A model generated the notes under the pieces. That model was not told the DNA's origin. It did no database searches and saw only the letters and a list, made by a program, of their open reading frames with translations. From assembly GCA_032718475.1 (NCBI GenBank), contig JAUCBJ010004684.1, positions 1-62,089 on the forward strand: a DNA stretch of 62,089 nt, in the 5' to 3' direction. Within the stretch, counting starts at the first letter, position 1. Every line of letters starts with the position of its first letter. Positions 67 through 57,095 of this stretch are shown one piece after another. The position numbers and the translations under genes were made by a program. This DNA is from Nemertoderma westbladi. Lineage: Eukaryota > Animalia > Xenacoelomorpha.

Positions 67-3000
67 AGTTATAAATATTAGCTGGTTTATTAAGTATTAG
101 CTTGTTTAGTCAATTTTAGCCGGTTTTAGTAAATATTAGCTGGTTTAGTAAATATTAGCTGGTTTAGTAAATATTAGCTGGTTTAGTAAATATTAGCTGG
201 TTTAGTAAATATTAGCTGGGTTCTTAAATATTAGCTGGGTTAGTAAATATTAGCTTGTTTAGTAAATATTATCTGGGTGAGTAAATATTAGCTGAGTTAG
301 TAAATATTAGCTGGGTTAGTAAATATTAGCTGGGTTAGTAAATATTGGCTGGATTAGTAAATATTAGCTTGGTTGGTAAATATTTGCTAGGTTAATAAAT
401 ATTAGCTGGGTTAGTAAATATTAGCTGGGTTAGTAAATATTAGCTGGGTTAGTAAATATTACCTGGGTTAGTAAATATTAGCTGCTTTAGTAAATATTAG
501 CTGGGTTAGTAAATATTAGCTGGGTTAGTAAATATTAGCTGGGTTCGTAAATATTAGCTAGGTTAGTAAATATTAGCTGGTTTAGTAAATATTAGCTGAG
601 TTAGTAAATATTAGTTGGTTTAGTAAATATTAGCTGGATTAGTAAATATTAGTTGGTTTAGTAATTATTAGCTGAGTTAGTAAGTATTTGCTGGGTTAGT
701 AAAATTAGCCGCGTTAGTAAATATTAGCTGGTTTAGTAAATCTTAGCTGGGTTCTTAAATATTAGCTGGGTTAGTAAATATTAGCTGGGTGAGTAAATAT
801 TAGCTGGTTTAGTAAATCTTAGCTGGGTTCTTAAATATTAGCTTGTTTAGTAAATATTAGCTGGGTTTGTAAATATTAACTTCGAGTTATTAAATATTAG
901 CTGGGTTAGTAAATATTAGCTGGTTTAGTAAATATTAGCTGGTTTAGTAAATATTAGCTGGTTTAGTAAATCTTAGCTGGGTTAGTAAATATTAGCTGGG
1001 TTAGTAAATATTAGCTGGTTTAGTAAATATTAGCTGGGTTCTTAAATATTAGCTGGGTTAGTAAATATTAGCTTGTTTAGTAAATATTAGCTGGGTTTGT
1101 AAATATTAACTTCGAGTTATTAAATATTAGCTGGGTTAGTAAATATTAGCTGGTTTAGTAAATATTAGCTGGTTTAGTAAATATTAGCTGGTTTAGTAAA
1201 TCTTAGCTGGGTTAGTAAATATTAGCTGGGTTTGTAAATATTAGCTGGGTTAGTAAATATTAGCTGGGTTAGTAAATATTAGCTGGGTTAGTAAATATTA
1301 GCTGGATTAGTAAATATTAGTTGGGTTAGTAAATATTAGCTGATATTACCTGGATTAGTAAATATTAGTTTGGTTGGTAAATATTAGCTGTGTTAGTAAA
1401 TATTAGCTGGGTTAGTAAATTTTAGCTGGGTTAGTAAATATTAGCGGGGTTCGTAAATATTAGCTGAGTTAGTAAATATTAGCTGGTTTAGTAAATATTA
1501 GCTGGTTTAGTAAATATTAGCTGGTTTAGTAAATCTTAGCTGGGTTAGTAAATATTAGCTGGGTTTGTAAATATTAGCTGGGTTAGTAAATATTAGCTGG
1601 GTTAGTAAATATTAGCTGGGTTAGTAAATATTAGCTGGATTAGTAAATATTAGTTGGGTTAGTAAATATTAGCTGATATTACCTGGATTAGTAAATATTA
1701 GTTTGGTTGGTAAATATTAGCTGTGTTAGTAAATATTAGCTGGGTTAGTAAATTTTAGCTGGGTTAGTAAATATTAGCGGGGTTCGTAAATATTAGCTGA
1801 GTTAGTAAATATTAGCTGGTTTAGTAAATATTAGCTGGGTTAGTAAATATTAGCTGATATTACCTGGATTAGTAAATATTAGTTTGGTTGGTAAATATTA
1901 GCTGTGTTAGTAAATATTTGCTGTGTTAGTAAATATTAGCTGGGTTAGTAAATATTAGCTGGTTTAGTAAATCTTAGCTGGGTTAGAAAATATTAGCTGG
2001 GTTCGTAAATATTAGCTGGGTTAGTAAATATTAGCTGGGTTAGTAAATATTAGCTACGTTAGTAAATATTAGCTGGGTTAGTAAATATTAGCTACGTTAG
2101 TAAATATTAGCTGGGTTAGTAAAATTAGCCGGGTTAGTAAATATTAGCTGGTTTAGTAAATCTTAGCTGGGTTAGAAAATATTAGCTGGGTTCGTAAATA
2201 TTAGCTGGGTTAGTAAATATTAGCTGGGTTAGTAAATATTAGCTACGTTAGTAAATATTAGCTGGGTTAGTAAATATTAGCTACGTTAGTAAATATTAGC
2301 TGGGTTAGTAAAATTAGCCGGGTTAGTAAATATTAGCTGGATTAGTAAATATTAGTTTGGTTGGTAAATATTAGCTGTGTTAGTAAATATTAGCTGGGTT
2401 AGTAAATATTAGCGGGGTTCGTAAATATTAGCTACGTTAGTAAATATTACCTGGGTTAGTAAATATTAGCTGCTTTAGTAAATATTAGCTGGGTTAGTAA
2501 ATATTAGCTGGGTTAGTAAATATTAGCTGGGTTCGTAAATATTAGCTGAGTTAGTAAATATTAGCTACGTTAGTAAATATTAGCTGGGTTAGTAAATATT
2601 AGCTACGTTAGTAAATATTAGCTGGGATAGTAAATATTAGCTACGTTAGTAAATATTAGCTGGGTTAGTAAAATTAGCCGGGTTAGTAAATATTAGCTGG
2701 TTTAGTAAATCTTAGCTGGGTTCTTAAATATTAGCTGGGTTAGTAAATATTAGCTGGGATAGTAAATATTAGTTGGTTTAGTAAATATTAGCTGGATTAG
2801 TAAATATTAGTTGGTTTAGTAATTATTAGCTGAGTTAGTAAGTATTAGCTGGGTTAGTAAAATTAGCCGGGTTAGTAAATATTAGCTGGTTTAGTAAATC
2901 TTAGCTGGGTTTGTAAATATTAACTGGGTTAGTAAATATTAGCTGGGTTAGTAAATATTAGTTGGTTTAGTAAATATTAGCTGGATTAGTAAATATTAGT

Positions 3001-6000
3001 TGGTTTAGTAATTATTAGCTGAGTTAGTAAGTATTTGCTGGGTTAGTAAAATTAGCCGCGTTAGTAAATATTAGCTGGTTTAGTAAATCTTAGCTGGGTT
3101 CTTAAATATTAGCTGGGTTAGTAAATATTAGCTTGTTTAGTAAATATTAGCTGGGTTTGTAAATATTAACTTCGAGTTATTAAATATTAGCTGGGTTAGT
3201 AAATATTAGCTGGTTTAGTAAATATTAGCTGTGATAGTAAATATTAGTTGGTTTAGTAAATATTAGCTGGGTTCTTAAATATTAGCTGGGTTAGTAAATA
3301 TTAGCTTGTTTAGTAAATATTAGCTGGGTTTGTAAATATTAGCTTTGAGTTATTAAATATTACCTGGGTTAGTAAATATTAGCTGGTTTAGTAAAATTAG
3401 CCGCGTTAGTAAATATTAGCTGGTTTAGTAAATATTAGCTGGGTTCTTAAATATTAGCTGGGTTAGTAAATATTAGCTTGTTTAGTAAATATTAGCTTGT
3501 TTAGTGTTCGTAAATATTAGCTGGGTTAGTAAATATTAGCTGGTTTAGTAAATATTAGCTGGTTTAGTAAAATTAGCCGCGTTAGTAAATATTAGCTGGT
3601 TTAGTAAATATTAGCTGGGTTCTTAAATATTAGCTGGGTTAGTAAATATTAGCTTGTTTAGTAAATATTAGCTTGGTTTGTAAATATTAGCTTTGAGTTA
3701 TTAAATATTACCTGGGTTAGTAAATATTAGCTGGTTTAGTAAATATTAGCTGGTTTAGTAAATCTTAGCTGGGTTAGTAAATATTAGCTGGGTTAGTAAA
3801 TATTAGCTTGTTTAGTAAATATTAGCTTGTTTAGTGTTCGTAAATATTAGCTGGGTTAGTAAATATTAGCTGGGTTAGTAAATATTAGCTGGGTTAGTAA
3901 ATATTAGCTACGTTAGTAAATATTAGCTGGGTTAGTAAATATTAGCTACGTTAGTAAATATTAGCTGGGTTAGTAAAATTAGCCGGGTTAGTAAATATTA
4001 GCTGGATTAGTAAATATTAGTTTGGTTGGTAAATATTAGCTGTGTTAGTAAATATTAGCTGGGTTAGTAAATATTAGCGGGGTTCGTAAATATTAGCTAC
4101 GTTAGTAAATATTACCTGGGTTAGTAAATATTAGCTGCTTTAGTAAATATTAGCTGGGTTAGTAAATATTAGCTGGGTTAGTAAATATTAGCTGGGTTCT
4201 TAAATATTAGCTGGGTTAGTAAATATTAGCTTGTTTAGTAAATATTAGCTTGGTTTGTAAATATTAGCTTTGAGTTATTAAATATTACCTGGGTTAGTAA
4301 ATATTAGCTGGTTTAGTAAATATTAGCTGGTTTAGTAAATCTTAGCTGGGTTAGTAAATATTAGCTGGGTTAGTAAATATTAGCTTGTTTAGTAAATATT
4401 AGCTTGTTTAGTGTTCGTAAATATTAGCTGGGTTAGTAAATATTACCTGGGTTAGTAAATATTAGCTGGTTTAGTAAAATTAGCCGCGTTAGTAAATATT
4501 AGCTGGTTTAGTAAATATTAGCTGGGTTCTTAAATATTAGCTGGGTTAGTAAATATTAGCTTGTTTAGTAAATATTAGCTTGGTTTGTAAATATTAGCTT
4601 TGAGTTATTAAATATTACCTGGGTTAGTAAATATTAGCTGGTTTAGTAAATATTAGCTGGTTTAGTAAATCTTAGCTGGGTTAGTAAATATTAGCTGGGT
4701 TAGTAAATATTAGCTGGTTTAGTAAATCTTAGCTGGGTTCTTAAATATTAGCTGGGTTAGTAAATATTAGCTTGTTTAGTAAATATTAGCTGGGTTTGTA
4801 AATATTAACTTCGAGTTATTAAATATTAGCTGGGTTAGTAAATATTAGCTGGTTTAGTAAATATTAGCTGGTTTAGTAAATATTAGCTGGTTTAGTAAAT
4901 CTTAGCTGGGTTAGTAAATATTAGCTGGGTTTGTAAATATTAGCTGGGTTAGTAAATATTAGCTGGGTTCGTAAATATTAGCTGGGTTTGTAAATATTAG
5001 CTGGGTTAGTAAATATTAGCGGGGTTCGTAAATATTAGCTGGGTTCGTAAATATTAGTTTGGTTGGTAAATATTAGCTGGGTTAGTAAATATTAGCTGGT
5101 TTAGTAAATCTTAGCTGGGTTCTTAAATATTAGCTGGGTTAGTAAATATTAGCTTGTTTAGTAAATATTAGCTGGGTTTGTAAATATTAACTTCGAGTTA
5201 TTAAATATTAGCTGGGTTAGTAAATATTAGCTGGTTTAGTAAATATTAGCTGGTTTAGTAAATATTAGCTGGTTTAGTAAATCTTAGCTGGGTTAGTAAA
5301 TATTAGCTGGGTTTGTAAATATTAGCTGGGTTAGTAAATATTAGCTGGGTTAGTAAATATTAGCGGGGTTCGTAAATATTAGCTGGGTTCGTAAATATTA
5401 GTTTGGTTGGTAAATATTAGCTGGTTTAGTAAATATTAGCTGGTTTAGTAAATATTAGCTGGTTTAGTAAATCTTAGCTGGGTTAGTAAATATTAGCTGG
5501 GTTTGTAAATATTAGCTGGGTTAGTAAATATTAGCTGGGTTCGTAAATATTAGCTGGGTTTGTAAATATTAGCTGGGTTAGTAAATATTAGCGGGGTTCG
5601 TAAATATTAGCTGGGTTCGTAAATATTAGTTTGGTTGGTAAATATTAGCTGGGTTAGTAAATATTAGCTGGGTTCGTAAATATTAGCTGGGTTTGTAAAT
5701 ATTAGCTGGGTTAGTAAATATTAGCTGGGTTCGTAAATATTAGTTTGGTTAGTAAATATTAGGTGGTTTAGTAAATATTAGCTGAGTTAGTAAGTATTAG
5801 CTGGTTTAGTAAATATTAGCTGTGATAGTAAATATTAGTTGGTTTAGTAAATATTATCTGGGTTCTTAAATATTAGCTGGGTTAGTAAATATTAGCTTGT
5901 TTAGTAAATATTAGCTGGGTTTGTAAATATTAGCTTTGAGTTATTAAATATTACCTGGGTTAGTAAATATTAGCTGGTTTAGTAAAATTAGCCGCGTTAG

Positions 6001-9000
6001 TAAATATTAGCTGGTTTAGTAAATCTTAGCTGGGTTCTTAAATATTAGCTGGGTTAGTAAATATTAGCTTGTTTAGTAAATATTAGCTGGGTTTGTAAAT
6101 ATTAACTTCGAGTTATTAAATATTAGCTGGGTTAGTAAATATTAGCTGGTTTAGTAAATATTAGCTGTGATAGTAAATATTAGTTGGTTTAGTAAATATT
6201 AGCTGGGTTCTTAAATATTAGCTGGGTTAGTAAATATTAGCTTGTTTAGTAAATATTAGCTGGGTTTGTAAATATTAGCTTTGAGTTATTAAATATTACC
6301 TGGGTTAGTAAATATTAGCTGGTTTAGTAAAATTAGCCGCGTTAGTAAATATTAGCTGGTTTAGTAAATCTTAGCTGGGTTCTTAAATATTAGCTGGGTT
6401 AGTAAATATTAGCTTGTTTAGTAAATATTAGCTGGGTTTGTAAATATTAGCTTTGAGTTATTAAATATTACCTGGGTTAGTAAATATTAGCTGGTTTAGT
6501 AAATATTAGCTGGTTTAGTAAATCTTAGCTGGGTTAGTAAATATTAGCTGGGTTAGTAAATATTAGCTGGTTTAGTAAATCTTAGCTGGGTTAGTAAATA
6601 TTAGCTGGGTTAGTAAATATTAGCTGGGTTAGTAAATATTAGCTGGGTTAGTAAATATTAGCTGGTTTAGTAAATCTTAGCTGGGTTCTTAAATATTAGC
6701 TGGGTTAGTAAATATTAGCTTGTTTAGTAAATATTAGCTGGGTTTGTAAATATTAACTTCGAGTTATTAAATATTAGCTGGGTTAGTAAATATTAGCTGG
6801 TTTAGTAAATATTAGCTGGTTTAGTAAATATTAGCTGGTTTAGTAAATATTAGCTGGGTTAGTAAATATTAGCTGGGTTCGTAAATATTAGCTGGGTTAG
6901 TAAATATTAGCTGGGTTAGTAAATATTAGCGGGGTTCGAAAATATTAGCTGGGTTCGTAAATATTAGTTTGGTTGGTAAATATTAGCTGGATTAGTAAAT
7001 ATTAGCTGGTTTAGTAAATCTTAGCTGGGTTAGTAAATATTAGCTGGTTTAGTAAATATTAGCTGGTTTAGTAAATCTTAGCTGGGTTAGTAAATATTAG
7101 CTGGTTTAGTAAATATTAGCTGGTTTAGTAAATCTTAGCTGGGTTAGTAAATATTAGCTGGGTTCGTAAATATTAGTTTGGTTGGTAAATATTAGCTGGA
7201 TTAGTAAATATTAGCTGGTTTAGTAAATCTTAGCTGGGTTAGTAAATATTAGCTGGTTTAGTAAATCTTAGCTGGGTTAGTAAATATTAGCTGGGTTAGT
7301 AAATATTAGCTGGGTTCGTAAATATTAGCTGGGTTCGTAAATATTAGTTGGTTTAGTAAATATTAGCTGGGTTAGTAAATATTAGGTGGTTTAGTAAATA
7401 TTAGCTGGGTTAGTAAATATTAGCTGGATTAGTAAATATTAGTTTGGTTGGTAAATATTAGCTGTGTTAGTAAATATTAGGTGGTTTAGTAAATATTAGC
7501 TGGGTTAGTAAATATTAGGTGGTTTAGTAAATATTAGCTGGGTTAGTAAATATTAGGTGGTTTAGTAAATATTAGCTGGGTTAGTAAATATTAGGTGGTT
7601 TAGTAAATATTAGCTGGGTTAGTAAATATTAGGTGGTTTAGTAAATATTAGCTGGGTTAGTAAATATTAGCTGGATTAGTAAATATTAGTTTGGTTGGTA
7701 AATATTAGCTGGGTTAGTAAATATTAGGTGGTTTAGTAAATATTAGCTGGGTTAGTAAATATTAGCTGGATTAGTAAATATTAGTTTGGTTGGTAAATAT
7801 TAGCTGTGTTAGTAAATATTAGGTGGTTTAGTAAATATTAGCTGTGTTAGTAAATATTAGGTGGTTTAGTAAATATTAGCTGTGTTAGTAAATATTAGCT
7901 GGGTTAGTAAATTTTAGCTGGGTTAGTAAATATTAGCGGGGTTCGTAAATATTAGCTGAGTTAGTAAATATTAGCTGGTTTAGTAAATATTAGCTGGTTT
8001 AGTAAATATTAGCTGGTTTAGTAAATCTTAGCTGGGTTAGTAAATATTAGCTGGTTTAGTAAATCTTAGCTGGGTTAGTAAATATTAGCCGGGTTAGTAA
8101 ATATTAGCTGGATTAGTAAATATTAGTTTGGTTGGTAAATATTAGCTGTGTTAGTAAATATTTGCTGTGTTAGTAAATATTAGCTGGGTTAGTAAATATT
8201 AGCTGGTTTAGTAAATCTTAGCTGGGTTAGTAAATATTAGTTGGTTTAGTAAATATTAGCTGGGTTCTTAAATATTAGCTGGGTTAGTAAATATTAGCTG
8301 ATATTACCTGGATTAGTAAATATTAGTTTGGTTGGTAAATATTAGCTGTGTTAGTAAATATTAGCTGGGTTAGTAAATTTTAGCTGGGTTAGTAAATATT
8401 AGCGGGCTTCGTAAATATTAGCTGATATTACCTGGATTAGTAAATATTAGTTTGGTTGGTAAATATTAGCTGTGTTAGTAAATATTAGCTGGGTTAGTAA
8501 ATTTTAGCTGGGTTAGTAAATATTAGCTGGGTTAGTAAATATTAGCTGATATTACCTGGATTAGTAAATATTAGTTTGGTTGGTAAATATTAGCTGTGTT
8601 AGTAAATATTAGCTGGGTTAGTAAATTTTAGCGGGGTTCGTAAATATTAGGTGGTTTAGTAAATATTAGCTGTGTTAGTAAATATTAGCTGGGTTAGTAA
8701 ATATTAGCTGGGTTAGTAAATATTAGCTGTGTTAGTAAATATTAGCTGGGTTAGTAAATTTTAGCGGGGTTCGTAAATATTAGGTGGTTTAGTAAATATT
8801 AGCTGGGTTAGTAAATATTAGCGGGGTTCGTAAATATTAGCTACGTTAGTAAATATTACCTGGGTTAGTAAATATTACCTGGGTTAGTAAATATTAGCTG
8901 CTTTAGTAAATATTAGCTGGGTTAGTAAAATTAGCCGGGTTAGTAAATATTAGCTGGTTTAGTAAATCTTAGCTGGGTTTGTAAATATTAACTGGGTTAG

Positions 9001-12000
9001 TAAATATTAGCTGGGTTAGTAAGTATTAGCTGTGATAGTAAATATTAGTTGGTTTAGTAAATATTAGCTGGTTTAGTAAATATTAGCTGGTTTAGTAAAT
9101 ATTAGCTCGTTTAGTAAATATTAGCTGGGTTTGTAAATATTAACTTCGAGTTATTAAATATTAGCTGGTTTAGTAAATATTAGCTGGTTTAGTAAATATT
9201 AGTTGGTTTAGTAAATCTTAGCTGGGTTCTTAAATATTAGCTGGGTTAGTAAATATTAGCTGGGTTAGTAAATATTAGCTGGGTTAGTAAATATTAGCTG
9301 GTTTAGTAAATATTAGCTGGGTTAGTAAATATTTGCTGGGTTAGTAAATATTAGCTGGGTTAGTAAATATTAGCTGGGTTCGTAAATATTAGCTGGGTTA
9401 GTAAATATTAGCTGGGTTAGTAAATATTAGCTGGGTTAGTAAAATTAGCTGGGTTAGTAAATATTAGCTGGGTTAGTAAATATTAGCTGGGATAGTAAAT
9501 ATTAGTTGGTTTAGTAAATATTAGCTGGTTTAGTAAATATTAGCTGGTTTAGTAAATATTAGCTGGTTTAGTAAATATTAGCTGGTTTAGTAAATATTAG
9601 CTCGTTTAGTAAATATTAGCTGGGTTTGTAAATATTAACTTCGAGTTATTAAATATTAGCTGGGTTAGTAAATATTAGCTGGTTTAGTAAATCTTAGCTG
9701 GGTTCTTAAATATTAGCTGGGTTAGTAAATATTAGCTGGGTTAGTAAATATTAGCTGGGATAGTAAATATTAGTTGGTTTAGTAAATATTAGCTGGTTTA
9801 ATAAATATTAGCTGGTTTAGTAAATATTAGCTCGTTTAGTAAATATTAGCTGGGTTTGTAAATATTAACTTCGAGTTATTAAATATTAGCTGGGTTAGTA
9901 AATATTAGCTGGTTTAGTAAATCTTAGCTGGGATAGTAAATATTAGGTGGTTTAGTAAATATTAGCTGGTTTAGTAAATATTAGCTGGGTTAGTAATTAT
10001 TAGCTGGGTTAGTAAATATTAGCTGGGTTAGTAAATATTAGCTGGGTTAGTAAATATTAGCTGGGTTCGTAAATCTTAGCTGGGATAGTAAATATTAGGT
10101 GGTTTAGTAAATATTAGCTGGGTTAGTAAATATTAGGTGGTTTAGTAAATATTAGCTGGTTTAGTAAATATTAGGTGGTTTAGTAAATATTAGGTGGTTT
10201 AGTAAATATTAGCTGGGTTAGTAATTATTAGCTGAGTTAGTAAATATTAGTTGGTTTAGTAAATATTAGCTGGATTAGTAAATATTAGCTGGTTTAGTAA
10301 ATCTTAGCTGGGTTAGTAAATATTAGCTGGGTTAGTAATTATTAGCTGAGTTAGTAAATATTAGTTGGTTTAGTAAATATTAGCTGGATTAGTAAATATT
10401 AGCTGGTTTAGTAAATCTTAGCTGGGTTAGTAAATATTAGCTGGTTTAGTAAATCTTAGCTGGGTTAGTAAATATTAGCTGGGTTAGTAAAATTAGCCGG
10501 GTTAGTAAATATTAGCTGGTTTAGTAAATATTAGCTGAGTTAGTAAATATTAGTTGGTTTAGTAAATATTAGCTGGATTAGTAAATATTAGCTGGTTTAG
10601 TAAATCTTAGCTGGGTTAGTAAATATTAGCTGGGTTAGTAATTATTAGCTGAGTTAGTAAATATTAGTTGGTTTAGTAAATATTAGCTGGATTAGTAAAT
10701 ATTAGCTGGTTTAGTAAATCTTAGCTGGGTTAGTAAATATTAGCTGGGTTAGTAAAATTAGCCGGGTTAGTAAATATTAGCTGGTTTAGTAAATATTAGC
10801 TGAGTTAGTAAATATTAGCTGGATTAGTAAATATTAGCTGGGTTAGTAAATATTAGGTGGTTTAGTAAATATTAGCTGGTTTAGTAAATATTAGGTGGTT
10901 TAGTAAATATTAGCTGGTTTAGTAAATATTAGCTGGGTTAGTAATTATTAGCTGAGTTAGTAAATATTAGTTGGTTTAGTAAATATTAGCTGGATTAGTA
11001 AATATTAGCTGGTTTAGTAAATCTTAGCTGGGTTAGTAAATATTAGCTGGTTTAGTAAATATTAGGTGGTTTAGTAAATATTAGCTGGGTTAGTAATTAT
11101 TAGCTGAGTTAGTAAATATTAGTTGGTTTAGTAAATATTAGCTGGATTAGTAAATATTAGCTGGTTTAGTAAATCTTAGCTGGGTTAGTAAATATTAACT
11201 GGGTTAGTAATTATTAGCTGAGTTAGTAAATATTAGTTGGTTTAGTAAATATTAGCTGGATTAGTAAATATTAGCTGGTTTAGTAAATCTTAGCTGGGTT
11301 AGTAAATATTAGCTGGGTTAGTAAAATTAGCCGGGTTAGTAAATATTAGCTGGTTTAGTAAATATTAGCTGAGTTAGTAAATATTAGTTGGTTTAGTAAA
11401 TATTAGCTGGATTAGTAAATATTAGCTGGTTTAGTAAATCTTAGCTGGGTTAGTAAATATTAGCTGGGTTAGTAATTATTAGCTGAGTTAGTAAATATTA
11501 GTTGGTTTAGTAAATATTAGCTGGATTAGTAAATATTAGCTGGTTTAGTAAATCTTAGCTGGGTTAGTAAATATTAGCTGGGTTAGTAAAATTAGCCGGG
11601 TTAGTAAATATTAGCTGGTTTAGTAAATATTAGCTGAGTTAGTAAATATTAGGTGGTTTAGTAAATATTAGCTGGGTTAGTAAATATTAGGTGGTTTAGT
11701 AAATATTAGCTGGTTTAGTAAATATTAGGTGGTTTAGTAAATATTAGCTGGTTTAGTAAATATTAGCTGGGTTAGTAATTATTAGCTGAGTTAGTAAATA
11801 TTAGTTGGTTTAGTAAATATTAGCTGGATTAGTAAATATTAGCTGGGATAGTAAATATTAGGTGGTTTAGTAAATATTAGCTGGGTTAGTAAATATTAGG
11901 TGGTTTAGTAAATATTAGCTGGTTTAGTAAATATTAGCTGGGTTAGTAATTATTAGCTGAGTTAGTAAATATTAGTTGGTTTAGTAAATATTAGCTGGAT

Positions 12001-15000
12001 TAGTAAATATTAGCTGGTTTAGTAAATCTTAGCTGGGTTAGTAAATATTAGCTGGTTTAGTAAATATTAGGTGGTTTAGTAAATATTAGCTGGGTTAGTA
12101 ATTATTAGCTGAGTTAGTAAATATTAGTTGGTTTAGTAAATATTAGCTGGATTAGTAAATATTAGCTGGTTTAGTAAATCTTAGCTGGGTTAGTAAATAT
12201 TAGCTGGGTTAGTAAAATTAGCCGGGTTAGTAAATATTAGCTGGTTTAGTAAATATTAGCTGAGTTAGTAAATATTAGTTGGTTTAGTAAATATTAGCTG
12301 GATTAGTAAATATTAGCTGGTTTAGTAAATCTTAGCTGGGTTAGTAAATATTAGCTGGGTTAGTAATTATTAGCTGAGTTAGTAAATATTAGTTGGTTTA
12401 GTAAATATTAGCTGGATTAGTAAATATTAGCTGGTTTAGTAAATCTTAGCTGGGTTAGTAAATATTAGCTGGGTTAGTAAAATTAGCCGGGTTAGTAAAT
12501 ATTAGCTGGTTTAGTAAATATTAGCTGAGTTAGTAAATATTAGGTGGTTTAGTAAATATTAGCTGGGTTAGTAAATATTAGGTGGTTTAGTAAATATTAG
12601 CTGGTTTAGTAAATATTAGGTGGTTTAGTAAATATTAGCTGGTTTAGTAAATATTAGCTGGGTTAGTAATTATTAGCTGAGTTAGTAAATATTAGTTGGT
12701 TTAGTAAATATTAGCTGGATTAGTAAATATTAGCTGGTTTAGTAAATCTTAGCTGGGTTAGTAAATATTAGCTGGTTTAGTAAATATTAGGTGGTTTAGT
12801 AAATATTAGCTGGGTTAGTAATTATTAGCTGAGTTAGTAAATATTAGTTGGTTTAGTAAATATTAGCTGGATTAGTAAATATTAGCTGGTTTAGTAAATC
12901 TTAGCTGGGTTAGTAAATATTAACTGGGTTAGTAATTATTAGCTGAGTTAGTAAATATTAGTTGGTTTAGTAAATATTAGCTGGATTAGTAAATATTAGC
13001 TGGTTTAGTAAATCTTAGCTGGGTTAGTAAATATTAGCTGGGTTAGTAAAATTAGCCGGGTTAGTAAATATTAGCTGGTTTAGTAAATATTAGCTGAGTT
13101 AGTAAATATTAGTTGGTTTAGTAAATATTAGCTGGATTAGTAAATATTAGCTGGTTTAGTAAATCTTAGCTGGGTTAGTAAATATTAGCTGGGTTAGTAA
13201 TTATTAGCTGAGTTAGTAAATATTAGTTGGTTTAGTAAATATTAGCTGGATTAGTAAATATTAGCTGGTTTAGTAAATCTTAGCTGGGTTAGTAAATATT
13301 AGCTGGGTTAGTAAAATTAGCCGGGTTAGTAAATATTAGCTGGTTTAGTAAATATTAGCTGAGTTAGTAAATATTAGGTGGTTTAGTAAATATTAGCTGG
13401 GTTAGTAAATATTAGGTGGTTTAGTAAATATTAGCTGGTTTAGTAAATATTAGGTGGTTTAGTAAATATTAGCTGGTTTAGTAAATATTAGCTGGGTTAG
13501 TAATTATTAGCTGAGTTAGTAAATATTAGTTGGTTTAGTAAATATTAGCTGGATTAGTAAATATTAGCTGGTTTAGTAAATCTTAGCTGGGTTAGTAAAT
13601 ATTAGCTGGGTTAGTAAAATTAGCCGGGTTAGTAAATATTAGCTGGTTTAGTAAATATTAGCTGAGTTAGTAAATATTAGTTGGTTTAGTAAATATTAGC
13701 TGGATTAGTAAATATTAGTTGGTTTAGTAATTATTAGCTGAGTTAGTAAGTATTAGCTGGGTTAGTAAAATTTGCCGGGTTAGTAAATATTAGCTGGTTT
13801 AGTAAATATTAGCTGAGTTAGTAAATATTAGTTGGTTTAGTAAATATTAGCTGGGTTAGTAATTATTAGCTGGGTTAGTAAATATTAGCTGGGTTAGTAA
13901 AATTAGCCGGGTTAGTAAATATTAGCTGGTTTAGTAAATCTTAGCTGGGTTCTTAAATATTAGCTGGGTTAGTAAATATTAGCTGGGTTAGTAAATATTA
14001 GCTGGGATAGTAAATATTAGTTGGTTTAGTAAATATTAGCTGGTTTAGTAAATATTAGCTGGTTTAGTAAATATTAGCTCGTTTAGTAAATATTAGCTGG
14101 ATTAGTAAATATTAGCTGGGTTTGTAAATATTAACTGGGTTAGTAAATATTAGCTGGTTTAGTAAATATTAGCTGAGTTAGTAAATATTAGTTGGTTTAG
14201 TAAATATTAGCTGGATTAGTAAATATTAGTTGGTTTAGTAATTATTAGCTGAGTTAGTAAGTATTAGCTGGGTTAGTAAAATTAGCCGGGTTAGTAAATA
14301 TTAGCTGGTTTAGTAAATCTTAGCTGGGTTCTTAAATATTAGCTGGGTTAGTAAATATTAGCTGGGTTAGTAAATATTAGCTGGGATAGTAAATATTAGT
14401 TGGTTTAGTAAATATTAGCTGGTTTAGTAAATATTAGCTGGTTTAGTAAATATTAGCTCGTTTAGTAAATATTAGCTGGGTTTGTAAATATTAACTTCGA
14501 GTTATTAAATATTAGCTGGGTTAGTAAATATTAGCTGGTTTAGTAAATCTTAGCTGGGATAGTAAATATTAGGTGGTTTAGTAAATATTAGCTGGTTTAG
14601 TAAATATTAGCTGGGTTAGTAATTATTAGCTGGGTTAGTAAATATTAGCTGGGTTAGTAAATATTAGCTGGGTTAGTAAATATTAGTTGGTTTAGTAATT
14701 ATTAGCTGGGTTAGTAAATATTAGCTGGGTTAGTAAATATTAGCTGGGTTAGTAAATATTAGCTGGGTTCGTAAATCTTAGCTGGGATAGTAAATATTAG
14801 GTGGTTTAGTAAATATTAGCTGGGTTAGTAAATATTAGCTGGTTTAGTAAATCTTAGCTGGGATAGTAAATATTAGGTGGTTTAGTAAATATTAGCTGGG
14901 TTAGTAAAATTAGCCGGGTTAGTAAATATTAGCTGGTTTAGTAAATCTTAGCTGGGTTAGTAAATATTAGCTGGGTTAGTAAATATTAGTTGGTTTAGTA

Positions 15001-15195
15001 ATTATTAGCTGGGTTAGTAAAATTAGCCGGGTTAGTAAATATTAGCTGGTTTAGTAAATCTTAGCTGGGTTAGTAAATATTAGCTGGGTTAGTAAATATT
15101 AGTTGGTTTAGTAATTATTAGCTGGGTTAGTAAAATTAGCTGGGTTAGTAAATATTAGCTGGGTTAGTAAATATTAGCTGGATTAGTAAATATTA
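67..15195 (+). repeat. Satellite 1: 19-bp tandem repeat, consensus AAATATTAGCTGGGTTAGT, about 800 copies; probably intronic in DCAF11
   Basis: Continuous 19-bp periodicity with recurrent variants (CTGGTTTAGT, CTACGTTAGT, AACTTCGAGTTATT, AAAATTAGCCGG). One more degenerate unit lies beyond the LINE at about 17579-17606. Confidence 0.98.
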
Positions 15196-17578
15196 TCTAT
15201 AAATTCCACGGTTATGATCGCAACATTTGAAGGGAATCCCAAAGCAACAGTTATATGTTGCTACAGTCCAACCAATGCCTCAGAGCCAGAACAAGCAGTC
15301 TGAAGAACTGACTGGACTTATAAAGGACATTCCGAAACACAATGTTAAAGTCATTACTGGTGACCTGAATGCGCAAATTGGCCCAGAAGACATCAAGGGT
15401 TACACCTATAACACCAGTTCTAACAGAAATGGGTACTTACTTTTAGACCTAATGGAAGAATGTGAATTGATACCAACAAACAACACATTCGAAAAGAGTA
15501 AGGGGAAGCTATGGACCTTTCAATACCCTAATGGAACCAAAGCCCTTAGCACAACTGGATTACATCCTTATAAACAAAAAGTGGAGAAACAGCATGATCA
15601 ACTGCGAGGCATACAGCTCGTTCAACCTAATTGGTTCGGACCACAAAATTGTGACTGCAGAGATTAGACTCAGTTTGAGAGCCAGCAAACCCAGGACAAG
15701 CAAGCAAATCAAATATGACTGGGAGAAACTCAGAACTGACAATGCTGTAAAGGATGCTTATACAGTAGAAATTCAAAACCGCTTTGAAGCACTTCAGTCA
15801 ATGGATGAAGACCAATCCACCAATTCAATATACCAGAATGTAATAACAGCCCACAAGGAATCAGCTAAGAGGCATATCCCCCAGAAACCCAAACGAAAAC
15901 AGTATGTGCCATGGCAAAACTCTGAGGTTACTTGTAAGAGAGAAGATCTTAAGATAGCATACAAAGTTAAAACCGAACAACCAACAACCGAAAACATTAA
16001 CAAGGTTGAGAAAGCTAAGGACGATCTTAAATTGGCCTACAACATCAGCCAGGAAAAGTACATACATGATAAAACTGAAGCAATTACAACTGCTCACATA
16101 CAGCAACAATCATATATCTGGTCGGAAAAGTTGTGCAAAGCCAAAATCAGTCAAAATCAAAAAATAAGTCAAATCCGATAGTCCTGAAGAACGTGTTGGG
16201 AAGTGGAAAAATCACTTCAGCAACTTGCTAGGGCAGCCACCAAACATCGAGGTCAGCCCTACAAGGAAAATATATGACAAGACACTACCTATAGAAACAG
16301 GGGACTTCACACCTGCCGAACTCCAAAGAAGCATTAAAAGCATGTCCAATAATAAAGCGAGTGGATTAGATGAAATCCCAGCCGGAGGTATGGAAAACCG
16401 GAGTGCTAAACAGACCATGATTGAATTTTTGCAACCGCATGTTAAAAGGGGAAAAGCCACCACCAATTTGGACTAAAGGTCAACTAAAGCCTCTCCCCAA
16501 GAAAGGAGACCTCGGCATACCAACAAACTATCGTGGGATCTGTCTGCTTGTGGTAGCTGCCAAAATATACAATAAAATGATTCTATATAGGATTAGGCTT
16601 AGAGAAACTACTGCGTAAGAGCAAAAACGGATTTCGACCAAGTAGATCAACAATGGTGAAACTGAGTTTTTCTCAATCCTGGCTGGGGTACTGCAAGGTG
16701 ACACATTAGCACCATTACTATTTGTAATTGTGCTGGATTACGCAATGAGGACGGCAACAAAGGGTGAAGACCTGGGATTCACACTTCAAGAACGCAGAAG
16801 TAGTAGATATCCGGCAACTACAGTCACAGACACCGACTTTGCGGATGACATCGCCCTGCTCTTTAATACGCTAGCAGATGCACAGCTTCTACTAAATAAA
16901 GTGGAGAGGGCTGCTAAGGAGGTTGGATTGCATATAAATGCTACAAAGACCGAATTCATGACCTTTAATGTTGAGGGAAACTTGACAACCATTGATAATA
17001 ATCAACTAAGGAAGGTCGATGACTTCCAGTACCTTGGATCATGGATAGAGAGTAGTAAAAAGGACATAGAAGTTAGGAAAGCAAAGGCTTGGGTAGCTCT
17101 ATCAAAAATGGATACCATCTGGAAATCAGATCTCTCCAGGCACCTGAAGAGTAAGTTCTTTCGAGCCACAGTGGAAAGTGTATTTTTATACTGGGGTGAG
17201 ACCTGGACACTAACTAAATTACTTGAACAACGAATTGATGGTTGCTACACAAGACTACTAAGGGCAGCCCTAAACATCAGCTGGAGACAACACATGACAA
17301 ACGCCGAGCTTTATGGTACAATACCATCTGTATCAACCACCCTCCGTGAACGCAGATTAAGATTCAGTGGGCACTGCTGGCGAAGTAAAGACGAGGTCAT
17401 ACCAGATCTACTTTTCTGGCAACCAACTCATGGAAAGCGTAGTCGTGGACGACCGGCCATAACATATATAGATCAACTGGAAAGGGATACTGAACTTGGG
17501 AGAAACGAAATTGCGACAACTATGTAGAATCGGGAAGCCTGGAAGGATCTCATTTCCACTGTCCGAGTAGTAGTAGTA
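15196..17578 (+). mobile_element. 5'-truncated non-LTR retrotransposon (LINE), RTE/RTEX-like, about 2.4 kb, with (AGT)n tail and 16-bp TSD GGATTAGTAAATATTA
   Basis: APE endonuclease motifs (CYSPT, GDLNA, LDYIL, SDH), RT motifs (PKKGD..NYRGI, GVLQGDTLAP, FADDIALL, YLGS) and an RTE-type C-terminus (RLRFSGHCWR, GKRSRGRP). The tail AGTAGTAGTAGTA is at 17566-17578. Identical 16-mers flank the element at 15180-15195 and 17579-17594. Confidence 0.92.
15200..17527 (+). pseudogene. Frameshifted, internally deleted endonuclease/reverse transcriptase ORF of the LINE
   Basis: The protein is split over ORFs 15227-15667, 15531-16181, 16225-16476, 16421-16618 and 16730-17527. NGFRPSRST is joined directly to NGETEFF near 16652, so the usual D-F-x-K-A-F-D RT motif is missing. 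Confidence 0.88.
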
Positions 17579-17604
17579 GGATTAGTAAATATTAGATGGG
17601 TTTG

Positions 17605-17680
17605 TGAAAACAAAACAAATCAAATAAAAATTGAATATAAACGAAATGAAATTTATATTCGTTTCGTTATGCCATCCCTA
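17605..17680 (-). mobile_element. Possible remnant end of a hAT-type MITE
   Basis: It ends in TGCCATCCCTA (reverse complement TAGGGATGGCA, like an Ac-type terminus) and has AAACGAA/TTCGTTTCG subterminal-like motifs. No partner end is visible. Confidence 0.3.
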
Positions 17681-17705
17681 CTTCCTAGGGCTTAACAATA
17701 TATAT

Positions 17706-18232: not shown

Positions 18233-18358
18233 ACGACGGTTGTATTTACGTATACGATCGTTGTCGCAACGAACGCACATTGAAACTGAACGGTCACGAA
18301 GACGATCTAGGTTGCGTTCGATTTGCCGATTCATCAGGACAAATATTCTACTCGGCAG
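18228..18358 (+). CDS. DCAF11: DCAF11/WDR23 internal exon (not in the ORF track): (G)ANDGCIYVYDRCRNERTLKLNGHEDDLGCVRFADSSGQIFYSA(G)
   Basis: My translation from 18229 matches recalled human DCAF11 GANDGCLYVFDREQNRRTLQIESHEDDVNAVAFADISSQILFSGG. Acceptor TGCAG ends at 18227 and donor AG|GTATTT is at 18359. The phase-1 join to the next exon gives GGC (Gly). Confidence 0.92.
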
Positions 18359-51124: not shown

Positions 51125-51435
51125 TTTGGAAAGGGAATAAATTAAAAGGAGATTCGTCATTAATGACATACAGAGGACATAGAGTCCTACATACTCTTAT
51201 ACGATCTCGCTTCTCGCCCATGCATTCCACTGGCCAGAAGTTTATCATTACTGGGTGCAGCTCAGGAGCCGTGGTTGTTTACGACGTTCTCAGCGGTAAC
51301 GTAGTAACCAAACTAAAACAACACGAGGCCTGTGTGAGGGATGTTTCGTGGCATCCTTACGAACAGATAATTGTTTCCTCTAGTTGGGACGGAACTGTGG
51401 GGAAGTGGACATACAACTCGAAATATCGGAGATAG
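51125..51435 (+). CDS. DCAF11: DCAF11/WDR23 terminal coding exon: (V)WKGNKLKGDSSLMTYRGHRVLHTLIRSRFSPMHSTGQKFI...CVRDVSWHP...SSSWDGTVGKWTYNSKYRR*
   Basis: ORF 51115-51435 carries the DCAF11 signature motifs TYRGH.VL.TLIR.RFSP.HSTGQ and VRDVSWHP. Stop codon TAG is at 51433-51435. Confidence 0.95.
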
Positions 51436-54400
51436 ATTAGTGGGGGAGTGGAGGTAGATAGGTTGAGAGTGGGGGAGTGGAGGTCGATAGGTTGGGAGTG
51501 GATGAGTGGAGGTAGATAGGTTGGGAGTGGGGGAGTGGAGGTCGATAGGTTGGGAGTGGGGGAGTGGAAGTCGATAGGTTGGGAGTGGGGGAGTGGAGGT
51601 AGATAGGTTGGGAGTGGGGGAGTGGAGGTCGATAGGTTGGGAGTGGATGAGTGGAGGTAGATAGGTTGGGAGTGGGGGAGTGGAGGTCGATAGGTTGGGA
51701 GTGGGGGAGTGGAGGTAGATAGGTTGGGAGTGGGGGAGTGGAGGTCGATAGGTTGGTAGTGGGAGTGGAGGTAGATAGGTTGGGAGTGGGGGAGTGGAGG
51801 TCGATAGGTTGGGAGTGGATGAGTGGAGGTAGATAGGTTGGGAGTGGGGGAGTGGAGGTCGATAGGTTGGGAGTGGGGGAGTGGAGGTCGATAGGTTGGG
51901 AGTGGGGGAGTGGAGGTAGATAGGTTGGGAGTGGGGGAGTGGAGGTCGATAGGTTGGTAGTGGGAGTGGAGGTAGATAGGTTGGGAGTGGTGGAGTGGAG
52001 GTCGATAGGTTGGGAGTAGGGGAGTGGAGGTAGATAGGTTGGGAGTGGGGGAGTGGAAGTCGATAGGTTGGGAGTGGGGGAGTGGAAGTCGATAGGTTGG
52101 GAGTGGGGGAGTGGAAGTCGATAGGTTGGGAGTGGGAGAGTGGAAGTCGATAGGTTGGGAGTGGATGAGTGGAGGTAGATAGGTTGGGAGTGGATGAGTG
52201 GAGGTCGATAGGTTGGGAGTGAATGAGTGGATGTAGATAGGTTGGGAGTGCGGGAGTGGAGGTCGATAGGTTGGGAGTGGATGAGTGGAGGTAGATAGGT
52301 TGGGAGTGGATGAGTGGAGGTCGATAGGTTGGGAGTGGATAAGTGGAGGTAGATAGGTTGGGAGTGGGGGAGTGGAGGTCGATAGGTTGGTAGTTGGGGA
52401 GTGGAAGTCGATAGGTTGGGAGTGCGGGAGTGGAGGTCGATAGGTTGGGAGTGCGGGAGTGGAGGTCGATAGGTTGGGAGTGGGGGAGTGGAAGTCGATA
52501 GGTTGGGAGTGGATGAGTGGATGTAGATAGGTTGGGAGTGGATGAGTGGAGGTCGATAGGTTGGGAGTGGATGAGTGGAGGTAGATAGGTTGGGAGTGGG
52601 GGAGTGGAGGTCGATAGGTTGGTAGTGGGGGAGTGGAGGTCGATAGGTTGGGAGTGCGGGAGTGGATGTAGATAGGTTGGGAGTGGATGAGTGGAGGTCG
52701 ATAGGTTGGGAGTGGATGAGTGGATGTAGATAGGTTGGGAGTGGATGAGTGGAGGTCGATAGGTTGGGAGTGGATGAGTGGAGGTAGATAGGTTGGGAGT
52801 GGGGGAGTGGAGGTCGATAGGTTGGTAGTGGGGGAGTGGAGGTCGATAGGTTGGGAGTGCGGGAGTGGAGGTCGATAGGTTGGGAGTGGATGAGTGGAGG
52901 TAGATAGGTTGGGAGTGGGGGAGTGGAAGTCGATAGGTTGGGAGTGGGGGAGTGGAAGTCGATAGGTTGGGAGTGGATGAGTGGAGGTCGATAGGTTGGG
53001 AATGCGGGAGTGGAGGTAGATAGGTTGGGAGTGGATGAGTGGAGGTCGATAGGTTGGGAGTGCGGGAGTGGATGTAGATAGGTTGGGAGTGGATGAGTGG
53101 AGGTAGATAGGTTGGGAGTGGGGGAGTGGAGGTCGATAGGTTGGTAGTGGGGGAGTGGAGGTCGATAGGTTGGGAGTGGATGAGTGGAGGTCGATAGGTT
53201 GGGAGTGCGGGAGTGGAGGTCGATAGGTTGGGAGTGCGGGAGTGGAGGTCGATAGGTTGGGAGTGGGGGAGTGGAAGTCGATAGGTTGGGAGTGGATGAG
53301 TGGATGTAGATAGGTTGGGAGTGGATGAGTGGAGGTCGATAGGTTGGGAGTGGATGAGTGGAGGTAGATAGGTTGGGAGTGGGGGAGTGGAGGTCGATAG
53401 GTTGGTAGTGGGGGAGTGGAGGTCGATAGGTTGGGAGTGCGGGAGTGGAGGTCGATAGGTTGGGAGTGGGGGAGTGGAAGTCGATAGGTTGGGAGTGGAT
53501 GAGTGGATGTAGATATGTTGGGAGTGGATGAGTGGAGGTCGATAGGTTGGGAGTGGATGAGTGGATGTAGATAGGTTGGGAGTGGATGAGTGGAGGTCGA
53601 TAGGTTGGGAGTGGATGAGTGGAGGTAGATAGGTTGGGAGTGGGGGAGTGGAGGTCGATAGGTTGGTAGTGGGGGAGTGGAGGTCGATAGGTTGGGAGTG
53701 CGGGAGTGGAGGTCGATAGGTTGGGAGTGGATGAGTGGAGGTAGATAGGTTGGGAGTGGGGGAGTGGAAGTCGATAGGTTGGGAGTGGGGGAGTGGAAGT
53801 CGATAGGTTGGGAGTGGATGAGTGGAGGTCGATAGGTTGGGAGTGCGGGAGTGGAGGTAGATAGGTTGGGAGTGGATGAGTGGAGGTCGATAGGTTGGGA
53901 GTGCGGGAGTGGATGTAGATAGGTTGGGAGTGGATGAGTGGAGGTAGATAGGTTGGGAGTGGGGGAGTGGAGGTCGATAGGTTGGGAGTGCGGGAGTAGA
54001 GGTCGATAGGTTGGGAGTGGGGGAGTGGAAGTCGATAGGTTGGGAGTGGATGAGTGGATGTAGATAGGTTGGGAGTGGATGAGTGGAGGTCGATAGGTTG
54101 GGAGTGGATGAGTGGAGGTAGATAGGTTGGGAGTGGGGGAGTGGAGGTCGATAGGTTGGTAGTGGGGGAGTGGAGGTCGATAGGTTGGGAGTGGATGAGT
54201 GGATGTAGATAGGTTGGGAGTGCGGGAGTGGATGTAGATAGGTTGGGAGTGGATGAGTGGAGGTCGATAGGTTGGGAGTGGGGGAGTGGAGGTAGATAGG
54301 TTGGGAGTGGGGGAGTGGAGGTCGATAGGTTGGTAGTGGGGGAGTGGAGGTCGATAGGTTGGGAGTGCGGGAGTGGATGTAGATAGGTTGGGAGTGGATG

Positions 54401-57095
54401 AGTGGAGGTCGATAGGTTGGGAGTGGATGAGTGGATGTAGATAGGTTGGGAGTGGATGAGTGGAGGTCGATAGGTTGGGAGTGGATGAGTGGAGGTAGAT
54501 AGGTTGGGAGTGGGGGAGTGGAGGTCGATAGGTTGGTAGTGGGGGAGTGGAGGTCGATAGGTTGGGAGTGCGGGAGTGGAGGTCGATAGGTTGGGAGTGG
54601 ATGAGTGGAGGTAGATAGGTTGGGAGTGGGGGAGTGGAAGTCGATAGGTTGGGAGTGGGGGAGTGGAAGTCGATAGGTTGGGAGTGGATGAGTGGAGGTC
54701 GATAGGTTGGGAGTGCGGGAGTGGAGGTAGATAGGTTGGGAGTGGATGAGTGGAGGTCGATAGGTTGGGAGTGCGGGAGTGGATGTCGATAGGTTGGGAG
54801 TGCGGGAGTGGAGGTCGATAGGTTGGGAGTGGATGAGTGGAGGTAGATAGGTTGGGAGTGGGGGAGTGGAAGTCGATAGGTTGGGAGTGGGGGAGTGGAA
54901 GTCGATAGGTTGGGAGTGGATGAGTGGAGGTCGATAGGTTGGGAGTGCGGGAGTGGAGGTAGATAGGTTGGGAGTGGGGGAGTGGAGGTCGATAGGTTGG
55001 TAGTGGGGGAGTGGAGGTCGATAGGTTGGGAGTGCGGGAGTGGATGTAGATAGGTTGGGAGTGGATGAGTGGAGGTCGATAGGTTGGGAGTGGATGAGTG
55101 GATGTAGATAGGTTGGGAGTGGATGAGTGGAGGTCGATAGGTTGGGAGTGGATGAGTGGAGGTCGATAGGTTGGGGGTGCGGGAGTGGAGGTCGATAGGT
55201 TGGGAGTGGAGGAGTGGAGGTCGATAGGTTGGGAGTGGATGAGTGGAGGTCGATAGGTTGGGAGTGGATGAGTGGAGGTAGATAGGTTGGGAGTGGGGGA
55301 GTGGAGGTAGATAGGTTGGGAGTGCGGAAGGGGAGGTCGATAGGTTGGGGGTGCGGGAGTGGAGGTCGATAGGTTGGGAGTGGGGGAGTGGAAGTCGATA
55401 GGTTGGGAGTGGATGAGTGGAGGTCGATAGGTTGGGAGTGCGGGAGTGGAGGTCGATAGGTTGGGAGTGGATGAGTGGAGGTAGATAGGTTGGGAGTGGG
55501 GGAGTGGAAGTCGATAGGTTGGGAGTGGGGGAGTGGAAGTCGATAGGTTGGGAGTGGATGAGTGGAGGTCGATAGGTTGGGAGTGCGGGAGTGGAGGTAG
55601 ATAGGTTGGGAGTGGATGAGTGGAGGTCGATAGGTTGGGAGTGCGGGAGTGGATGTAGATAGGTTGGGAGTGGATGAGTGGAGGTAGATAGGTTGGGAGT
55701 GGGGGAGTGGAGGTCGATAGGTTGGGAGTGCGGGAGTAGAGGTCGATAGGTTGGGAGTGGGGGAGTGGAAGTCGATAGGTTGGGAGTGGATGAGTGGATG
55801 TAGATAGGTTGGGAGTGGATGAGTGGAGGTCGATAGGTTGGGGGTGGATGAGTGGAGGTAGATAGGTTGGGAGTGGGGGAGTGGAGGTCGATAGGTTGGT
55901 AGTGGGGGAGTGGAGGGCGATAGGTTGGGAGTGGATGAGTGGATGTAGATAGGTTGGGAGTGGATGAGTGGAGGTCGATAGGTTGGGAGTGGATGAGTGG
56001 AGGTCGATAGGTTGGGGGTGCGGGAGTGGAGGTCGATAGGTTGGGAGTGGAGGAGTGGAGGTCGATAGGTTGGGAGTGGATGAGTGGAGGTCGATAGGTT
56101 GGGAGTGGATGAGTGGAGGTAGATAGGTTGGGAGTGGGGGAGTGGAGGTAGATAGGTTGGGAGTGCGGAAGGGGAGGTCGATAGGTTGGGGGTGCGGGAG
56201 TGGAGGTCGATAGGTTGGGAGTGGGGGAGTGGAAGTCGATAGGTTGGGAGTGGATGAGTGGAGGTCGATAGGTTGGGAGTGCGGGAGTGGAGGTCGATAG
56301 GTTGGGAGTGCGGGAGTGGAGGTCGATAGGTTGGGAGTGGGGGAGTGGAAGTCGATAGGTTGGGAGTGGATGAGTGGATGTAGATAGGTTGGGAGTGGAT
56401 GAGTGGAGGTCGATAGGTTGGGAGTGGATGAGTGGAGGTAGATAGGTTGGGAGTGGGGGAGTGGAGGTCGATAGGTTGGTAGTGGGGGAGTGGAGGTCGA
56501 TAGGTTGGGAGTGGATAAGTGGAGGTATATGGGTTGGGAGTGGGGGAGTGGAGGTAGTTGGGTTGGGAGTGGGGGAGTGGAGGTTGTTGGGTTGGGAGTG
56601 GGGGAGTGGAGGTAGTTGGGTTGGGTGTGGGGGAGTGGAGGTATATGGGTTGGGAGTGGGGGAGTGGGGGTCGATAGGTTGGGAGTGGGGAGTGGAGGTA
56701 GATGGGTTGGGATTGGGGGAGTGGAGGTTGTTGGGTTGGGAGTGGGGGAGGGGAGGTAGATAGGTTGGGTTTGGGGGAGTGGAGGTTGTTGGGTTGGGAG
56801 TGGGGAGTGGAGGTAGATGGGTTGGGATTGGGGGAGTGGAGGTTGTTGGGTTGGGAGTGTGGAGTGTAGGTAGATGTGTTTGGAGTGGGGAGTGGAGGTA
56901 GATAGGTTGGGAGTGGGGGAGTGGAGGTTGTTGGGTTGGGAGTGGTGAGTGGAGGTAGATGGGTTGGGATTGGGGGAGTGGAGGTTGTTGGGTTGGGAGT
57001 GTGGAGTGTAGGTAAATGTGTTTGGAGTGGGGAGTGGAGGTAGATAAGTTGGGAGTGCGGGAGTGGAGGAGGGTTGGGAGTGGGGGAGTGGAGGG
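51430..57095 (+). repeat. Satellite 4: 29-bp G-rich tandem repeat GTGGGGGAGTGGAGGT(A/C)GATAGGTTGGGA, about 195 copies, starting at the DCAF11 stop codon
   Basis: Period 29 (51541 and 51570). The + strand has almost no C. The array degenerates after about 56520. Confidence 0.97.

Follow-up and report, generated by a model that had tools for sequence, protein, structure and literature searches.

How do the introns of a broadly conserved gene come to consist largely of tandem copies of that gene's own splice sites? The question is posed by a window of 62,089 nucleotides of Nemertoderma westbladi (assembly GCA_032718475.1, contig JAUCBJ010004684.1, positions 1-62,089; "the window" is this whole stretch of DNA as it was analysed), and all that follows concerns one gene in one assembly. 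The gene is DCAF11, present as three exons in a single open frame, and tandem arrays, called with Tandem Repeats Finder (TRF) on the window, account for 53,289 bp of a studied span of 57,028 bp. The explanation that we prefer, with a probability of about 0.6, is that the three arrays at its exon-intron junctions are minisatellites of the kind called mirage in amphioxus, which arose from ordinary local DNA duplications in very short introns. The gene and its arrays are laid out as follows (a slash within a motif marks the splice point; X4 is one of six public sequencing runs):

67-15195, + strand: 19-bp array of ~798 units (TRF 68-15195), its left side cut by an adapter
17579-17609, + strand: last decayed 19-bp unit, with the donor copy GG/GTTTGT, followed by TGAAA
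17706-18233, + strand: 28-bp acceptor array of 19 units (TRF)
18228-18358, + strand: exon A, 131 nt (open frame, X4 contig, tblastn)
18359-18765, + strand: intron of 407 nt, GT-AG, with an array at neither end (joint in X4 contig)
18766-19032, + strand: exon B, 267 nt (open frame, X4 contig, tblastn)
19024-19095, + strand: working donor (GT 19033), followed by three 18-nt copies of which two have decayed; the earliest intact decoy lies at 19087
19085-51060, + strand: 17-bp donor array of ~1,843 units with 1,537 GTTAGT decoys (TRF)
34423-39124, + strand: block of 2,344 bp, duplicated perfectly in tandem within the 17-bp array
51125-51435, + strand: exon C, the last coding exon, with stop TAG at 51433-51435 and an unusually short C-terminal tail
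51428-57094, + strand: 29-bp G-rich array of ~196 units (TRF 51439-57094), G-quadruplex-prone

The exon-junction arrays of DCAF11

The protein encoded by exon C was 59-74% identical to DCAF11 in the best 120 of 187 matches, and the named proteins among these 120 were DCAF11, the rest being unnamed or hypothetical. In tblastn, two homologues each matched all three exons, and the host gene fits DCAF11/WDR23 exon by exon. The database contained no close relative of the host. The protein is 65% identical to that of Branchiostoma; in a tree of 51 rows (the window and 50 of the 120 matches, picked for taxon spread) it fell outside the supported clade of Branchiostoma and vertebrates and was otherwise unplaced.

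An earlier note on this DNA, made from the letters alone, had listed four arrays with units of 19, 28, 17 and 29 bp, all of which were recovered by TRF, and had read the 28-bp unit as a copy of the acceptor whose AG ends at 18227 and the 17-bp unit as a copy of the donor whose GT begins at 19033, and alignment confirmed both readings. The 28-bp unit consists of 22 nt of intron end and 6 nt of exon start. Its final copy is the working acceptor, the AG of the adjacent copy is changed to GG, and the other 17 of the 18 upstream copies retain AG. The nearest decoy acceptor has GG instead of AG (at 18198-18199), and the two donor copies nearest to 19033 have decayed too; this could be due to selection against the closest competitors or to decay at the array edge. 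The contigs of two other runs (X2 and X3) end just right of the changed base, and the GG may be allele-specific. One 31-mer of the acceptor unit, which occurs twice in the window, had a depth of 41 versus 21 for unique flank in run X2, a weak hint only as to whether the unit is specific to this locus.

The 17-bp array is tied to donor 19033 by the three 18-nt copies that follow it. Units that resemble the junction occupy the first 1.4 kb and the very last position, and the 30 kb between them are filled by a derived TAG/GTTAGT variant: of the 46 units of CCCAGA type, 45 are situated upstream of 20500 and the remaining one at 51042, with none in 20500-51035. The true donor and the old-type units have CG/GT, versus AG/GTTAGT in 1,408 of the 1,537 decoys, and in 1,394 decoys 7 of 9 positions agree with the U1 consensus, versus 6 of 9 in the true donor. 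The interior is made up of blocks of 0.76-2.36 kb with 99.8-100% identity; the perfect duplication of 2,344 bp represents either a recent event or an artefact of assembly or polymerase chain reaction (PCR). A relaxed ARAGORN call of a threonine transfer RNA at 32399-32486 falls within this array and was rejected.

The start of the 19-bp array and the exon upstream of exon A are missing for a technical reason, namely because an adapter at 15-66 cuts the contig. The proposal that the 19-bp unit represents the end of this absent exon plus a GTTAGT donor was borne out by a spliced X4 contig, in which the upstream exon ends with 13 letters, AAATATTAGCTGG, that are identical to the 19-bp unit and stand in the correct phase; the unit is composed of these final 13 nt and the donor. 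The chance of such a 13-letter match is ~1.4e-6 (19 registers and two strands; computed on a 13-mer shifted by one base, of like composition). The loose end of the contig before 18227 translates as F-S-S-D-N-A-E-I-L-A-G, and homologues carry the same motif at the end of the upstream exon (..EILAG-ANDG). The donor GT is kept in only about one third of the 19-bp units (268 occurrences of GGGTTAGT in 200-15100). The word TGAAA follows the last decayed unit (17605-17609) and is found again ahead of the unit in the upstream exon; to judge from these letters, it is likely the microhomology that seeded the array. The tail of the array houses one further element:

15196-17578, + strand: broken non-LTR (long terminal repeat) retrotransposon with reverse transcriptase (RVT_1, E 4e-14) and a GTA tail

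The element, which we take to be RTE-like, is bordered by a 16-bp target-site duplication (15180-15195 = 17579-17594), and its insertion is later than the growth of the array. Its (GTA)n tail resembles the TAGTA of its target.

The X4 contig (depth 197) joins the upstream exon to exons A, B and C at 18227, 18358/18766 and 19032/51125: it skips the 407-nt GT..AG intron, and after 19032 continues with the letters from 51125 onward. Because the contig skips introns and the DNA runs of the same sample have no such joints, run X4 is taken as RNA-derived, though it is recorded as 'DNA?'. In the dominant transcript, splicing at all three junction arrays takes place at the exon-proximal site, across 32 kb and 1,537 GTTAGT decoys.

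Four public runs (X1 to X4, of which X2 to X4 are one sample) were compared with region 18205-19110, a comparison that for the independent DNA runs covers the 28- and 17-bp arrays; two of the six runs, X5 and X6, held next to none of the locus words. The contigs of all three DNA runs (X1, X2 and X3, from two studies, X1 possibly being the source of the assembly) hold the first copies and end where the arrays begin. This gives independent support for the presence of the 28- and 17-bp arrays, whose lengths are those given by the assembly. A 47-nt piece of the 407-nt intron (18621-18667) matched another locus in the three DNA runs, with 7 differences, and is likely a fragment of a dispersed repeat.

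Origin of the arrays

Once the arrays are collapsed and the retrotransposon is removed, the introns measure ~121, 407 and 73 nt, sizes at which a random tolerated duplication would cross a junction in 16-44% of cases, which speaks for local duplication. The units carry exon and intron letters in genomic order, which indicates DNA, not spliced RNA, as the template. Between the consensus of the 19-bp unit and that of the 17-bp unit, no shared word exceeds the 7 nt of the donor motif itself, so that the independent expansions at exon edges postulated before can be upheld for the three arrays; a single satellite family behind all arrays was rejected (shared words between arrays ≤8 nt). Minisatellite birth reportedly takes place between short flanking direct repeats, a model put forward by Haber and Louis in 1998, and repeats of 4-5 nt, read from decayed edges, appear to flank the 19- and 17/18-bp units. 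For the latter, GTA(A)C, which occurs in exon B and again behind the final 17-bp unit, is a possible flanking direct repeat.

According to the explanation that we prefer, birth would have occurred by slippage or end-joining between short direct repeats on either side of the junction, TGAAA in the case of the 19-mer and GTA(A)C in that of the 17/18-mer, and slippage and unequal exchange would have carried growth to satellite size. Such arrays would be tolerated since a junction-crossing duplication leaves the exon and the nearest site intact. The first donor would be chosen ahead of later ones, as in human F7, and use of a decoy would lead to an early stop and to removal by nonsense-mediated decay. 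Splicing errors are probably buffered in this way, as the first intact decoy donor reads GGT TAG, an immediate stop, and none of the 17 AG-bearing decoy acceptors leaves the frame open. We rejected the possibility that RNA structure hides the decoys: predicted accessibility was the same for the true donor (0.26-0.41) and for distal decoys (0.35; 120 of 1,460 sampled). Since the true donor does not stand out by its RNA folding, a first-come or exon-defined choice of donor is likely.

Several observations weigh against this explanation. All three intronic arrays cross a junction. A random tolerated duplication would do so in 16-24% of cases over the three introns and in 30-44% over the two array-bearing ones, giving p values of 0.006 and 0.04, respectively (or 1e-4 with the 2.4-kb retrotransposon included in the target), which are post hoc values for collapsed introns with n=3 in a window chosen as striking. 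Neutral tolerance does not predict this excess, which is suggestive of a bias. GTTAGT donors gave rise to both giant arrays, which have GGTTAGTAA in common, and the only visible donor free of an array is GTATTT, a pattern for which the neutral model has no explanation. The proposed microhomologies were read from decayed edge units, and rare splice forms are lost in contigs, so that the silence of the decoys holds for the dominant form only. Finally, there is a fifth array, absent from the earlier note:

58597-59256, + strand: array of 19 bp x 35 that starts at and repeats GTAAGT (TRF)

It begins at a perfect GTAAGT, a word held by 32 of 6,938 unique 19-mers on the same strand. As a separate observation, two of the three visible donors read GTTAGT rather than GTAAGT, and both of these seeded giant arrays.

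The 29-bp array stands apart, since it overlaps the stop codon and not an exon-intron boundary and lies outside the definition of a mirage. It does overlap the stop at 51433, as had been claimed; the resemblance is loose, a shortened first copy matching the last codons and stop in 9 of 10 letters before a gap, and a stop codon is not read in the nucleus and is no splicing or nuclear processing signal. It is likely an ordinary G-rich minisatellite adjoining the end of the coding sequence, where coding constraint stops. It might alternatively be that the repeat or its seed made the present stop, thereby removing the usual acidic tail of DCAF11, instead of having been seeded by an old stop. In favour of this, the protein ends 13 residues after its WDG motif, whereas the median tail length of 110 homologues is 40 residues and only one of them has a tail of ≤16 residues (110 of 120 homologues with the motif were compared, 10 without it being dropped), and the edge copy GGAGATAGAT is one letter off the GGAGGTAGAT of the 29-bp unit. 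The tail of DCAF11 is poorly conserved, however, and a remnant tail exon was not found downstream (best E 0.31); we consider a stop made by the repeat possible but unlikely. The X4 contig has 46 letters beyond the stop of exon C (836 - 479 - 311), a surplus that would reach into the array if colinear. Three antisense frames of 1,900 residues over this array result from the lack of antisense stops there.

The excess of junctions is a reason to consider a bias coupled to transcription or splicing, as the earlier note had proposed. Local breaks or slippage would then be more frequent at exon edges, owing to polymerase pausing, R-loops or the assembly of spliceosomes, and arrays would preferentially be born or grow there. 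Besides the three out of three intronic arrays, the start of the fifth array at GTAAGT speaks for it, and so does a G skew on the sense strand, which favours R-loops and is strong in the 19-bp (0.59) and 29-bp (0.91) arrays. The skew is small, however, in the 28-bp (-0.06) and 17-bp (0.14) arrays, three of the six splice sites seen have no array, the units follow genomic order, and the stop codon does not act as a signal in the nucleus. The sample is three arrays in a window picked for its striking look. Likeness to a donor is in itself weak evidence, as donor-like words (7/9) also occur antisense in two arrays (18 and 19 sites). The coupling proposal has the numerical excess on its side and no direct support, and we judge it improbable. 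The uniform sense orientation of the arrays, which had been put forward with it, was seen and is no evidence, being automatic for direct tandem duplication.

Properties of the unit DNA could instead have set the giant size, the junction being incidental: a telomere-like GGTTAG core, a hairpin or a G-quadruplex. The word GGTTAGTAA is common to both giant arrays (273 and 1,412 copies); GGGTTAG occurs 273 times in the 19-mer array, and TAGGTTAG 1,491 times and TAACCC 1,061 times in the 17-mer array. Both GGTTAGTAA and GGTTAG resemble telomere repeats. The 17-mer forms long DNA hairpins (z -9.2 and -6.2 versus 100 shuffles) and 43% of the 25-nt windows of the 29-mer array reach a G4Hunter score of 1.2. 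Against this, a repeated self-complementary unit lowers z by construction, the 19-mer folds no better than shuffles (z -1.3) and still extends over at least 15 kb, and two arrays versus one array-free donor make no statistic. As the force behind the giant size, sequence-driven growth seems rather unlikely to us, though it is compatible, as an add-on, with the local duplications that we prefer.

A further possibility is that the arrays are real and that template switching during PCR, or else the assembler, has exaggerated their lengths. The contig starts with:

15-66, strand not applicable: pair of 26-nt adapters from library amplification, arranged head to head; non-genomic sequence

These letters correspond to the PacBio ultra-low-input adapter as given in PMC13694257, and bases 1-14 stem from another molecule, the contig being chimeric there. 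With an adapter in the contig the library was PCR-amplified, and the array lengths are therefore unverified. Ultra-low-input libraries are stated in the same source to average ~9-10 kb, which is less than the 32-kb array, and the perfect 2,344-bp tandem block and a fraction of unique 120-mers of only 21% in the 17-bp array point the same way. The longest exact repeat, on the other hand, is 2,358 bp, which is shorter than such reads, and an artefact would hardly produce variants in an ordered gradient, a last unit of the old type or a retrotransposon with its target-site duplication. The first array copies are also present in the contigs of all three DNA runs. We regard inflated lengths as an outside chance.

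In a wider form of the coupling proposal, exon edges in this lineage would be hotspots of satellite birth, driven by transcription or splicing to tens of kb, and the ~1,400 AG/GT words could permit stepwise removal of the intron. If true, this would mean that tiny introns of a housekeeping gene can become giant ones built of thousands of their own splice sites; we regard it as quite improbable. As to the stepwise removal itself, in which the TAG/GTTAGT word would be functional in a ratchet-like manner (splicing of exon B to any AG would rebuild a donor), the prevalence of AG/GTTAGT over the CG/GT of the true donor and old-type units and a branch-like TAGTAAC in each 17-bp unit would favour it; we find it very improbable, given that the decoys lack the pyrimidine tract of a ratchet point (upstream fraction 0.35 versus 0.63-0.74 at the three true acceptors), that AG/GT is absent from the 19-bp array, whose intron is spliced all the same, and that drift of one variant gives the same pattern. 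The other option of the earlier note, selection on which duplications are tolerated, would not by itself give arrays across junctions an advantage over those confined to introns, so that a bias stays conceivable.

Likeness to known repeats at splice junctions

Amphioxus mirages have been described in Adh3, the globins BflGb6 and BflGb9, troponin C and PGBD5, and the traits listed for them are a unit that lies over an exon-intron boundary, normal splicing, boundary units that escape homogenisation and an unclear mechanism of birth (PMC3087553, PMC3902484). The DCAF11 arrays resemble them in that the units span the boundary at both donors and acceptors (the 19-, 28- and 17/18-bp arrays), that many copies keep their GT or AG, that several arrays occur in one gene and that splicing is normal (judged by one X4 contig). 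The exclusion of cluster edges from homogenisation, as described for mirages (PMC3087553), has its counterpart in the 17-bp array, where old-type units are found only at the edges and the interior is homogenised. Unit size is also alike: 10-72 and 150-160 bp are given for amphioxus (PMC3087553) and the DCAF11 units are of minisatellite size (17-28 bp). The differences are the non-chordate host and the copy number: 798 and 1,843 copies, against the 3-6 reported for BflGb6 (PMC3087553).

A second parallel is formed by human donor sites with a variable number of tandem repeats (VNTRs), for which the following are listed: F7 intron 7 (37 bp x 5-9), CBS intron 13 (15-20), 6-16 (26 sites), lamin B2 (10-15) and PDGF (16-18) (PMC1557585). 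In F7 the most upstream donor is said there to win even over stronger pseudo-sites (PMC1557585). Likewise, the first DCAF11 unit spans the donor and the most upstream site is used despite equal or better later copies; unlike the human cases, DCAF11 has three junction arrays and ~70 times more copies than the largest one listed. Third, the fertility genes kl-3 and kl-5 on the Drosophila Y chromosome have megabase introns of simple satellites, AATAT and AAGAC (PMC11207136). Introns filled with tandem repeats and nevertheless spliced are common to both systems; those of DCAF11 measure 15-32 kb, have units derived from the locus and belong to a broadly conserved ubiquitin-ligase adaptor gene and not to testis genes. 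What PMC11207136 relates of the Y satellites does not describe them as copies of junctions, which the DCAF11 units are.

The kind of array, which is probably harmless, is thus already known, under the name of mirage and from F7, CBS and 6-16, and in this respect the DCAF11 arrays are not new. The scale stands against the published cases, for an amplified library: what is new, if the lengths hold, is ~800-1,840 copies versus 3-26 in the published cases compared, along with units of ancestral type at both array ends. Our literature search, which was thin on subscription journals, turned up no earlier account of arrays of 15-32 kb that stem from a junction. The locus would then link junction minisatellites of few copies with the giant introns filled by satellites, which are known apart. 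The founding unit is preserved here by the coding constraint on the exon and the direction of satellite evolution can be read, which is rarely possible otherwise. The locus further amounts to an extreme experiment of nature on how 5' splice sites are chosen, in which a weak first donor beats ~1,400 better-matching copies and a decoy 73 nt before the acceptor, an outcome that argues for first-come or exon-defined choice over pairing of the nearest sites, in an animal with likely once-tiny introns. In practical terms, short-read assemblies are interrupted by such arrays at the edges of exons, and gene models are left in fragments.

Repeats downstream of the gene

It had also been claimed that every large repeat of the gene is seeded by one of its own processing signals. 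This does not apply, in view of the 2.4-kb retrotransposon, the splice sites that are free of arrays and the repeats downstream. The latter include further tandem repeats of 87, 14 and 15 bp within 5 kb of downstream sequence; none of them adjoins a known exon, and this region therefore appears to duplicate readily. Beside the fifth array (58597-59256) no exon was found; the array may belong to the donor of an unrecognised exon. Neither a second gene nor a hidden tail exon was found 3' of DCAF11 in the window, and a search with Rfam gave only two microRNA matches below threshold, on an inverted repeat.

Among the single repeats, the 87-bp unit is duplicated twice at 58134-58310 and has a donor-like word GTGAG with, 35 nt further on, a T-rich stretch that ends in AG. 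Words like an A-box and a B-box occur at 60886-60960, possibly from a tRNA-derived short interspersed element (SINE), a stretch for which ARAGORN and Rfam made no call. At 59593-59702 a 15-bp tandem unit is accompanied by an inverted copy, and at 60095-61709 a word of 15-20 nt is present in five direct and two inverted copies; both are likely the remains of DNA transposons.

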